Assembly (NCBI GenBank): GCA_951406725.2
Contig: OX597836.1
Span: 10,292,001-10,356,000, forward strand
Origin: Octopus vulgaris
Taxonomy: Eukaryota
Length of the DNA stretch: 64,000 nucleotides
Reading direction: 5' to 3'
How positions within the stretch are numbered: the first letter of the stretch is position 1; each line of letters starts with the position of its first letter. Below the pieces are notes generated by a model that saw nothing but the letters and a program-made list of their open reading frames with translations, ran no database searches and was not told the origin of the DNA. A program made the position numbers and the translations under genes. Shown piece by piece: positions 9,621-53,214 of this stretch.

Positions 9621-9911
9621 TTTCTCTCCGTCCCCTGGCTGTCCGGCTCCTGTTTTAACCCCCCCACCACCACTATCAAACGGAGACAGTGGTTTGTTTA
9701 GATCTTTCAAATCGCGGCTAATTAGAGTTGATCAGATATCAACGATCCCACTTTGAAGAGGGTTCAACGATTGTTGTCCCACACCAGGACCAGGTGGCGT
9801 GGCTGCTGCTCTGTCCATCATGATGACCATGACGAATTAAGACGTTAGACGTGCTTAACAACACTAACATCAGCGACAATACATGCGTCCAACAATAGAT
9901 TGCCGCCCACT

Positions 9912-10058
9912 ATTTATCTAGTTTCAGCTCACGAGCTGTGGCCATGCTGGGGCACCGCCATTTAAAAGAAATTGCTCCCCACCCCCCCGCCCCGGCGGGG
10001 AATCGAACCCCGGTCTCCCGCGTGACTTACCACTATACTACCGCTATACTACCGAGGA
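9912..10058 (-). pseudogene. tRNA-Asp(GTC) pseudogene fused to a LINE-type 3' tail
   Basis: Minus: TCCTCGGTAGTATAG(duplicated)TGGTAAGTCACGCGGGAGACCGGGGTTCGATTCCCCGCCGGGG matches metazoan tRNA-Asp, with the 5' anticodon stem deleted. It is followed by GGGGAGCAATTTCTTTT and AAATGGCGGTGCCCCAGCATGGCCACAGCTCGTGAGCTGAAACTAGATAAATA. Confidence 0.85.
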
Positions 10059-19109: not shown

Positions 19110-19172
19110 TAAATCCTTAAATCCTTAAAAATGTTTTAGCCCGAAGGCCGCGGCCATGCTGGGGCACCACCG
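19110..19172 (-). mobile_element. Isolated LINE-type 3' tail with (TTTAAGGA)n end
   Basis: Minus: GGTGGTGCCCCAGCATGGCCGCGGCCTTCGGGCTAAAACATTTTTAAGGATTTAAGGATTTA. Confidence 0.7.
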
Positions 19173-19194
19173 CTGTATGTAGAAGTTTACAACT

Positions 19195-35944: not shown

Positions 35945-36460
35945 TCTACAAGTCTCAGTTGTTTGACTGTGCCCATGCTGGGGCACCGCCTTGAGGAATT
36001 CTTAGTCGAATGAATTGACCCCATTACTTATTTTTTTTAAAACTGGTACTTATTCAATCGGACTCTTTTGCCGAACCGCCAGAGGATCCATGGCTTTTAC
36101 CCAGGCGGCCCGGGTTCGATTCCCGGCATGGGAACGTAAATTTTAATGGCGGTGCCCCAGCATGGCCATACATCATGAGCTGAAACTGGTTCAATTCAGT
36201 TCAATACCAACAATGGTTGTCAAACGGTGGTGTGGATGGGTAAACACACACACATACACACACACACACATACACACACACACACACACACGCACACACA
36301 CACACAAGTATACATAACGGGCTTCTTTCAGTTTCTGTCTATCAAATCTACTCACAAGGCTTTGGCCAGCCAGGCACTTATTGTAGAAGACACTTGCCCA
36401 AGGTGACATACAGTTGGACTGAACCCAGAAGCTTATGGTTTGGAAGTAAGCTTTTTACCA
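35945..36460 (-). mobile_element. SINE A interrupted by a tRNA-Glu/tail insert
   Basis: Family A sequence at about 35945-36078 and 36206-36460. Confidence 0.82.
36081..36205 (+). pseudogene. 5'-truncated tRNA-Glu pseudogene fused to a LINE-type 3' tail
   Basis: AGGATCCATGGCTTTTACCCAGGCGGCCCGGGTTCGATTCCCGGCATGGGAA matches the 3' two-thirds of metazoan tRNA-Glu(TTC). It is followed by CGTAAATTTT-AATGGCGGTGCCCCAGCATGGCCATACATCATGAGCTGAAAC and a (TTCAA/G)n end. Confidence 0.85.
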
Positions 36461-52862: not shown

Positions 52863-53214
52863 GCGCAGGCGTGGCTGTATGGTGAGGAGCTTGTTTCCCA
52901 ACCACATGGTCCTGGGTTCAGTTCCACTGCGTGGCACCTTGGTCAAGTGCCTTTTACTATTGCCTCGAGCCGATCAAAGCCTTGTGAGTGGATTTGGTAG
53001 ACGGAAACTGAAAGAAGCACGTGGTATATATGTATGTGTGTGTTTGTGTGTGTGTGTGTGTCTTCTCTCCTCCCCTACGGGTATCACCTGACAACTGATG
53101 CTTGTGTGTTTATATCCCCGTAACTAAGCGGTTCGGCAAAAGAACCGAACTTTTAAGACAGTGCTCTAGCATGGCCGCAGTCAAATGACTGAAACAAGTA
53201 AAAGAATAAAAGAG
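52863..53214 (+). mobile_element. SINE A with internal deletion
   Basis: Head GCGCAGGCGTGGCTGTATGG; tail CAGTCAAATGACTGAAACAAGTAAAAGA. Confidence 0.88.

Follow-up and report, generated by a model that had tools for sequence, protein, structure and literature searches.

The fusion of small RNAs to the ends of non-LTR retrotransposons has been described in several vertebrates, and the closest known parallels to the units reported here are the U6-L2 chimeras of the platypus and the model put forward for the avian PittSINE family. In the platypus (U6-L2 and U6-Mon1) and the anole (U6-L1, U6-L2, U6-RTEX and U6-AnolisSINE2), a sense, U-ended RNA polymerase III (Pol III) transcript lies 5' of a short segment from a stringent LINE or from its SINE, as it does in the octopus (Doucet et al. 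2015, PMC4476161). These chimeras also often have a 5'-truncated head and short target duplications, and template switching was proposed to explain them; in the available part of that report the survey concerns snRNAs only, and its CR1 case is one unresolved copy. The octopus units differ in including precursors of 19 tRNA isoacceptors, 5S and 7SL RNA, in having more tRNA than U6 heads, in being joined within a few nucleotides of a hairpin base, and in occurring in an invertebrate-type genome. Human U6/L1 fusions made via RtcB (Moldovan et al. 2019, PMC6789731) likewise unite a full-length U6 ending in a T-run with a 5'-truncated LINE in a single insertion. However, as far as the accessible text of that study extends, L1 junctions are scattered without a preferred site and a cyclic phosphate is needed, whereas the octopus units have a junction hot spot, precursor heads and junctions to native 5' ends.

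In the passerine families TguSINE1 and PittSINE (Suh et al. 2017, PMC5729268), a tRNA head is placed directly on a CR1 tail with a hairpin and a microsatellite, and their origin has been ascribed to a template switch to tRNA-Asp. These are amplified families from which the founding event is deduced, in contrast to the dozens of single copies with leader, trailer or intron found here. Mammalian tRNA/L1 chimeras (Law and Burns, bioRxiv 2025.02.02.635956) similarly contain a tRNA co-inserted with a LINE end, but the 21 loci reported are mostly antisense halves, for which twin priming was proposed, whereas the octopus heads are sense, whole or 5'-truncated precursors. Template switching has also been suggested as a source of SINE heads in PMC5786205, PMC4494074 and PMC4758252; U, U-L1 and 5S SINE families are tabulated in PMC13282606, and the available part of PMC3747384 does not mention octopus. 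A literature search confined to accessible article texts found no earlier account of chimeras in which pre-tRNAs are joined to a CR1 tail at a fixed point. The class of chimeric retrocopies is itself already known; what is new is the use of precursors as heads, the breadth of the heads, the fixed junction and the taxon. The manner in which a tRNA first gains a LINE tail has usually been inferred from finished SINE families, and here products of the founding type can be viewed directly.

The window, i.e. the whole stretch of 64,000 nucleotides of Octopus vulgaris DNA that was analysed (C23:10292001-10356000), contains two tRNA units of this type; whole-genome counts refer to the 2.8-Gb genome. 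The first, on the reverse strand, has as its head a rearranged pseudogene of tRNA-Asp(GTC) without CCA (9975..10058), recognised by the Rfam tRNA model RF00005 (31 bits at 9988-10058) and by alignment to an intact Asp body from locus L107; ARAGORN called no tRNA in the window, this copy included. Its damage consists of a short duplication within the D arm, a missing 5' half of the anticodon stem and a 12-nt G-rich insertion near the 3' end. It is followed by an 11-nt trailer, CAATTTCTTTT, which ends in T4, a remnant of the Pol III terminator (9964..9974, reverse strand), and then by a CR1-type LINE 3' tail of two A, hairpin 1, hairpin 2 and a short A-rich terminal repeat (9911..9963, reverse strand), identified from its identity to LINE 3' ends, its fold and covariation in hairpin 2. 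An Asp copy that keeps a genomic trailer, lacks CCA and runs directly into a tail was noted in the initial annotation, and it is present as described. No source gene for the trailer was found among 100 Asp 3' ends listed, retrieved with a pattern that tolerates no change over 17 nt and excludes ends with C at its final position. No target duplication was seen at this unit, the longest flank repeat being 3 nt, and a search of the genome with its flanks found no empty site, because the flanks are unique.

The second unit, on the forward strand, begins with a 5'-truncated head derived from tRNA-Glu(TTC) (36083..36134), which corresponds to positions 21-73 of the complete Glu-TTC head at locus L045 and lacks the first ~20 nt of the tRNA; it also has no CCA. 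The 10-nt trailer CGTAAATTTT, again ending in T4, and one A at the junction (36135..36145) lead into a CR1-type tail (36146..36205) whose sequence and fold reveal a diverged second hairpin and a different terminal repeat. The two units had been credited with the same junction and the same tail variant: the trailer-A-tail junction stands, whereas the tails are not one variant, because the second hairpin and the terminal repeat differ. According to flank matches, the Glu unit interrupts the 3' part of an opposite-strand SINE (35950..36079, reverse strand, left end approximate), which continues after 36205; both flanks are collinear with single SINE copies in 22 hit pairs, and 19-22 nt of the host are missing. 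A headless solo tail of a related tail family, recognised by sequence and fold, starts at the base of hairpin 1 (19125..19176, reverse strand, ends approximate), and this tail is also fused to U6 at two other loci (L310 and L311). With up to three mismatches allowed, a 22-mer of the tail is found 14 times in the window but never in 100 shuffles, so its presence is not due to chance. Twelve of these matches belong to SINE-type tails or other variants, and most are ends of an abundant SINE. Repeat-finder output on the window was dominated by microsatellites, low-score Rfam miRNA matches were rejected as microsatellite noise, and no long ORF of interest was seen near the units. Part of the stretch is represented in 20 sequencing runs, with no RNA run among those listed. 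A SINE and a LINE copy (window positions 53110-53200, forward strand, and L257) have lost internal sequence up to the hot spot described below.

Searching the genome for a tRNA T-loop followed within 8-36 nt by the tail gave 69 matches, against 0 for the reversed pattern used as a control, which excludes chance; the pattern does not detect heads whose T-loop differs in its letters or whose stub is shorter. With the gap widened to 37-97 nt there were seven matches, one of them the window Asp copy, and none of the seven had a longer piece of LINE in the gap. Together, 68 retrieved loci and the two window units provide 70 tRNA-like heads, six of which were miscalled by relaxed ARAGORN and reassigned by eye. 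They represent 66 events, with 19 isoacceptors and 11 amino acids: Glu-TTC (17), Asp (10), Gly-TCC (5), Ala-TGC, Leu-CAA and His (4 each), Gly-GCC and Asn (3 each), Leu-TAA, Leu-TAG, Lys-CTT and Lys-TTT (2 each), and single instances of Glu-CTC, Leu-AAG, Leu-CAG, Cys, Ser, Arg-ACG and Arg-CCT. Five further copies (L116, L117, L118, L124 and L125, on C27 and C29) are one tRNA-like stub head with common flanks, and the four duplicates among them account for the difference between 70 units and 66 events.

In all 66 events, the last T of the head is separated from the tail by 0-3 letters, namely AA (27), A (22), GA (6), CA (4), AAA (3), none (2), CGA (1) or CAA (1). The junction is thus not random in position, lying 0-3 nt before hairpin 1 in every case, and the proposal that pre-tRNAs of many isotypes with oligo-U ends are joined to a LINE tail is upheld with a fixed point of joining. 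The T-run at the junction varies from 1 to 12, with a single T in 11 of the 66 events; T4 is kept before the tail in 46 and is lacking in 20. The differing trailers, junctions and tail strings point to independent origins of the copies. This has a bearing on whether both window units could be copies of ordinary SINE families, given that tRNA-headed SINEs without a body and with a CR1 tail exist in birds (PMC5729268). The 66 events have 27 tail strings, in common with LINE subfamilies, and many trailers, and do not form one SINE family. Moreover, heads with an equal trailer can differ in junction and tail subfamily (L032/L047/L109, L033/L048 and L094/L097), and the only repeated units have common flanks and so are DNA duplications. 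The ordinary-SINE explanation is consequently largely refuted, and its probability is negligible.

The tail itself is the last ~60 nt of a CR1-type LINE and forms two hairpins with a short repeat behind them. Its identity to LINE 3' ends and the reverse transcriptase (RT) ORF upstream of it (RVT_1, PF00078, E 1.2e-30) establish it as a LINE 3' end, as had been surmised, and identify the element concerned. We take this LINE to be a CR1 on the strength of sequence motifs in its 3' 1.5 kb, rather than a tree; the best PDB matches of its RT are R2 and L1 ORF2, and the atlas names indicated no clade. The element ends in a 3' hairpin and a terminal short repeat, the arrangement without a poly(A) requirement described in PMC5729268; the repeats of the tails have units of 4-6 nt, and in hairpin 2 two of the 12 pairs are changed on both sides across the LINE and SINE variants. 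An exact 28-mer of the tail has 8,527 genome copies, against 0 for the control. Tails of the SINE type take tRNA heads in the same manner (7 of 9 matches). Asp heads are also joined to the stem base of a fourth type of tail, whose hairpin is longer (L176 and L177); in L176 they are preceded by another, partial Asp head.

The distribution of 5' ends among 71 consecutive tail copies is far from even. Thirty carry more than 20 nt of LINE sequence and another 30 begin 0-4 nt before hairpin 1, comprising 24 solo tails, two U6 heads, one tRNA head, one SINE head, one LINE with a short deletion and one unclassified; a further 10 belong to one SINE family with a tRNA-like head, joined at the same spot. 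Of the other starts, one lies at 12 nt and two, among the 30 copies with LINE sequence, at 21-100 nt, giving three in the next 95 nt. As this pattern is blind to shorter copies, a second was anchored on hairpin 2, and of the first 100 of its 3,383 rows, counted by eye, 44 start at the spot, 20 inside hairpin 1 and 36 reach into the LINE. The base of hairpin 1 is a real 5'-end peak, and a strong hot spot, of this LINE. The solo tails of ~60 nt, about a third of tail copies (24/71), often lie in (TA)n and constitute a very short mobile unit.

Heads typically have a gene-specific trailer and no CCA, often with a leader of 3-7 nt or an intron, and gene flanks are absent. Eight pairs of chimera and gene have 4-12 nt of trailer in common, with a leader match of 3-7 nt in four pairs and none in the other four, and identity upstream of the leader of 0.18-0.40; the pairs L031/L274 and L112/L304 follow the same pattern, the chimera L031 retaining an intron. 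Introns are present in 20 of the 20 full Leu-CAA genes seen. Three precisely spliced Leu-CAA copies, detected with a pattern blind to copies that have C at its final position, carry trailers and are joined to three different tails; the trailer of one (L324) is that of an intron-bearing gene. Since these spliced copies keep their trailers while all 20 genes have introns, an RNA step is demonstrated: the heads derive from RNA, not from the gene locus. The Leu cluster on C29 was rejected as an intron-less source, all 14 of its full genes having introns. The copies also record that splicing can precede 3' trimming, and they reveal the tRNA genes active in the germ line, together with the start and stop points of their transcripts.

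Classification by eye of 100 near-perfect Asp 3' ends listed gave 58 that are gene-like and 42 dispersed retrocopies. The latter comprise 18 on a tail at the hairpin base (12 of them this LINE), 11 at a SINE 5' end, eight at internal sites, three at simple repeats and two unclassified. Chimeric bodies have a mean of 1.6 changes, compared with 0.4 in genes (19 and 26 copies respectively), and 39 of the 70 heads pass default ARAGORN. As this last figure and the 42 dispersed Asp ends imply, naive tRNA gene counts are inflated, which bears out another suspicion of the initial annotation.

Tx1 elements such as Dewa, and the TRE elements of Dictyostelium, insert at real tRNA gene loci. The octopus units resemble these in that a retroelement adjoins tRNA sequence, but they are without gene flanks and can be spliced, and insertion at real tRNA genes is not what is found in most copies. 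The first of the two routes originally considered, in which a short tail element is inserted at the terminators of tRNA genes or of older tRNA retrocopies in two events, is therefore not supported, given the absent flanks and the spliced heads. Among the 100 listed Asp ends, by eye, this LINE tail follows none of the 58 that are gene-like and the SINE tail follows two, in one event; most tails are nowhere near tRNAs, and 11 of the 66 junctions have just one T. That solo tails are common (24/71) and prefer AT-rich sites does suit targeting, as does a cluster of three Asp genes at C3:23.94 Mb, and perhaps locus L168, where a piece of retroelement lies behind the terminator of a conserved gene. 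As an account of the units as a whole, targeting is very improbable.

The heads are not confined to tRNAs. Rfam searches at the junctions of 40 further loci with T4 and tail identified three U6, three 5S, one full 7SL and three tRNAs, and several more of these loci have short 3' stubs of tRNAs. Short unknown sequences that end in a T-run before the tail (L138:2500-2580, L193, L214 and L231) may be further Pol III transcripts or trailers released from tRNAs. Every head seen is in the sense orientation relative to the tail, in 70 of 70 tRNA-like units as well as in the U6, 5S and 7SL units. There are 196 U6 ends in the genome, and the first 100, sorted by eye, are joined to this LINE tail (11), two related tails (15), a SINE tail (14, of which six are one duplicated event), SINE 5' ends (30), U6 +1 (2) or internal sites (8), while 15 are gene-like and five unclassified; most listed U6 ends are thus retrocopies that inflate gene counts. 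A variant U6 array of ~1.1 kb, among the arrays at L285-L290 and L306, has a sequence that is also found in chimeras. The SINE partner of U6 extends to its tail in five of the six loci where the partner was found, and SINE partners are judged from their sequence to start probably at the true transcription start. Two units have no LINE tail: L308, composed of a tRNA-Lys precursor, a truncated U6 and a 5' part of U6, and L309, a U6-U6 tandem retrocopy. The joining of tRNAs to LINE tails is accordingly real, although its original scope was too narrow, with U6, 5S and 7SL as heads and with SINE 5' ends, internal sites and U6 as partners.

These observations constrain the order in which the parts were joined. 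Ligation might come first, with a nuclease freeing a ~60-nt tail RNA and a ligase such as RtcB joining it to U-ended Pol III RNAs before the fusion is retrotransposed. The fixed junction would suit a discrete tail RNA, sense orientation and a single insertion are predicted equally well, and RtcB acts on pre-tRNAs during splicing. However, tRNA precursors are expected to end in 3'-OH, and despite this tRNA heads (at least 65 events) exceed U6 heads on the tail (11 in the first 100 of 196); T-runs of 1-12, variable junction letters and the existence of three-part units also count against ligation. The human U6/L1 fusions supply a precedent (PMC6789731), but RtcB requires a cyclic phosphate and a 5'-OH, and the SINE 5'-end and U6 +1 junctions imply triphosphate or capped ends, which it does not accept (PMC6789731). 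Ligation is on balance rather unlikely.

The best explanation, to which we would attach a probability of roughly 0.6, is that the units are retrocopies of Pol III precursors produced by target-primed copying of the tail followed by an end-to-end jump onto a U-ended RNA. The tail, as the LINE end with its two hairpins, would be copied first. LINE copies stop at the hairpin 1 base much more frequently than at nearby sites, as the hot spot attests, leaving many solo tails; either the bound RNA may be trimmed to the hairpin base or the enzyme may be released there. An untemplated dA on the cDNA could then pair with the terminal U of a pre-tRNA, U6, 5S or 7SL RNA and synthesis continue, by analogy with R2. 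This would yield heads with a trailer, often a leader, and with or without an intron, full-length or 5'-truncated and always sense, as observed. Head and tail would interrupt the target at one point, often (TA)n, as is apparent at some loci. As LINE and SINE differ upstream, the junction is tied to the hairpin rather than to the sequence preceding it, and the SINE 5'-end junctions, the U6 +1 junctions and the three-part L308 all support end-to-end jumps.

The RT of Bombyx R2 makes continuous cDNA across separate RNAs via a one-base overhang, in serial jumps (PMC8594491, PMC8857657); its jumping depends on the addition of untemplated bases, which is greatest with dATP. The R2 reaction was observed in vitro and belongs to another clade. 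In R2 assays, high dATP gave the most tailing, yet jumping was suppressed (PMC8594491), which by analogy would count against the jump model. An A:U jump leaves no trace distinguishable from the terminator, and the additional C or T letters seen where U6 is joined may stem from read-through of U6 genes instead of untemplated addition. Jumping, the untemplated A and trimming of the tail RNA are what we infer from the sequences; the class of chimeric retrocopies to which they would give rise is real, general and well supported. Whether a template jump or ligation is responsible is directly testable, because there are single copies, a defined LINE with long open RT frames and a fixed junction.

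Evidence on insertion comes from the flanks. Both match one repeat copy in eight of 86 units, the window Glu unit included, with a gap of -4 to +22 nt; the other 78 have no usable flanks, a ninth match (L097) being uninformative. A (TA)n lies 3' of the unit in 29 of the 66 events, compared with 23 of 30 copies of the LINE and 15% of sites taken at random in the window, and at some loci the target is (TA)n with a short duplication or none. Tabulation of isotypes, junctions and target duplications, as first suggested, thus gives 19 isoacceptors and one junction, but the flank repeats of 30 full units have a mean of 6.8 nt, against 5.7 nt in shuffled pairs (3/500), and partly reflect common microsatellites. 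Alternatively, copying of the tail might be abortive and the free end of cDNA or target be patched, in host end joining, with cDNA of a U-ended RNA made by this RT again or another polymerase, without a continuous jump. The 19-22 nt target deletion at the Glu copy and the rearranged Asp head would then represent untidy 5' joining. Tailless pre-tRNA and U6 copies that adjoin (TA)n directly (three of the 100 listed Asp ends) are also in keeping with this, as they indicate that a U-ended RNA can be primed by target DNA. Repair of this kind is nevertheless unlikely, since the junctions are nearly flush and every head seen is sense, in contrast to the antisense halves of tRNAs that are ascribed to twin priming in human L1 (bioRxiv 2025.02.02.635956).

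If the units do arise by template jumping, most would be dead on arrival, because a terminator precedes the tail, while the third or so without one (20/66 lacking T4) would be putative candidates for read-through as SINEs without a body. In architecture the units are SINE-like, with a Pol III promoter head and a LINE tail, both window heads being damaged. The expectation that such units become SINEs is nonetheless not borne out: T4 is retained in 46 of 66, and among the 70 no combination of head, junction and tail is repeated with unrelated flanks, such that no pre-tRNA chimera was seen to have been amplified by retrotransposition. The hot spot is used by a SINE family of ~225 nt, in which the 5' 160 nt of another SINE are joined to the LINE tail (L012, L017, L025, L234 and L239), and which has 694 exact junction copies in the genome. 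Its parent continues into a different body, and the join is one of microhomology with no U-run.

At C3:23.94 Mb, the terminators of the three conserved Asp genes are directly followed by a SINE-type tail, from one event. These Asp bodies, with decayed flanks and a decayed SINE tail (L138:1446-1600; L139:1446-1600 and 1990-2147; C3:23.939-23.941 Mb), have 0 changes, while their upstream regions are 72-79% and their tails 83-98% identical; L168:475-700 has a perfect Asp body with decayed flanks and a decayed SINE head right after the terminator. Each may reflect insertion at a real gene or, instead, an old chimera or retrocopy that was kept as a gene. It is possible, though doubtful, that a discrete ~60-nt tail RNA stays bound to the LINE protein and serves as a ready primer-template to which the 3' end of any Pol III transcript can be joined, a standing proto-SINE factory, and that some captured pre-tRNAs, such as the three Asp bodies and L168, become working tRNA genes at new sites. 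New tRNA genes could then arise by way of a retrotransposon, and the copies would preserve, as fossils, the ends of pre-tRNAs and the order of their processing. Several tRNA genes also occur in tandem, in an array of about 37 tRNA-Asp units of 158 bp (C5:51.22-51.31 Mb), in a Leu-CAA cluster with 110-bp partial repeats (L303, C29:8.82 Mb), and in Leu-CAG units of 542 bp among the arrays at L285-L290 and L306.
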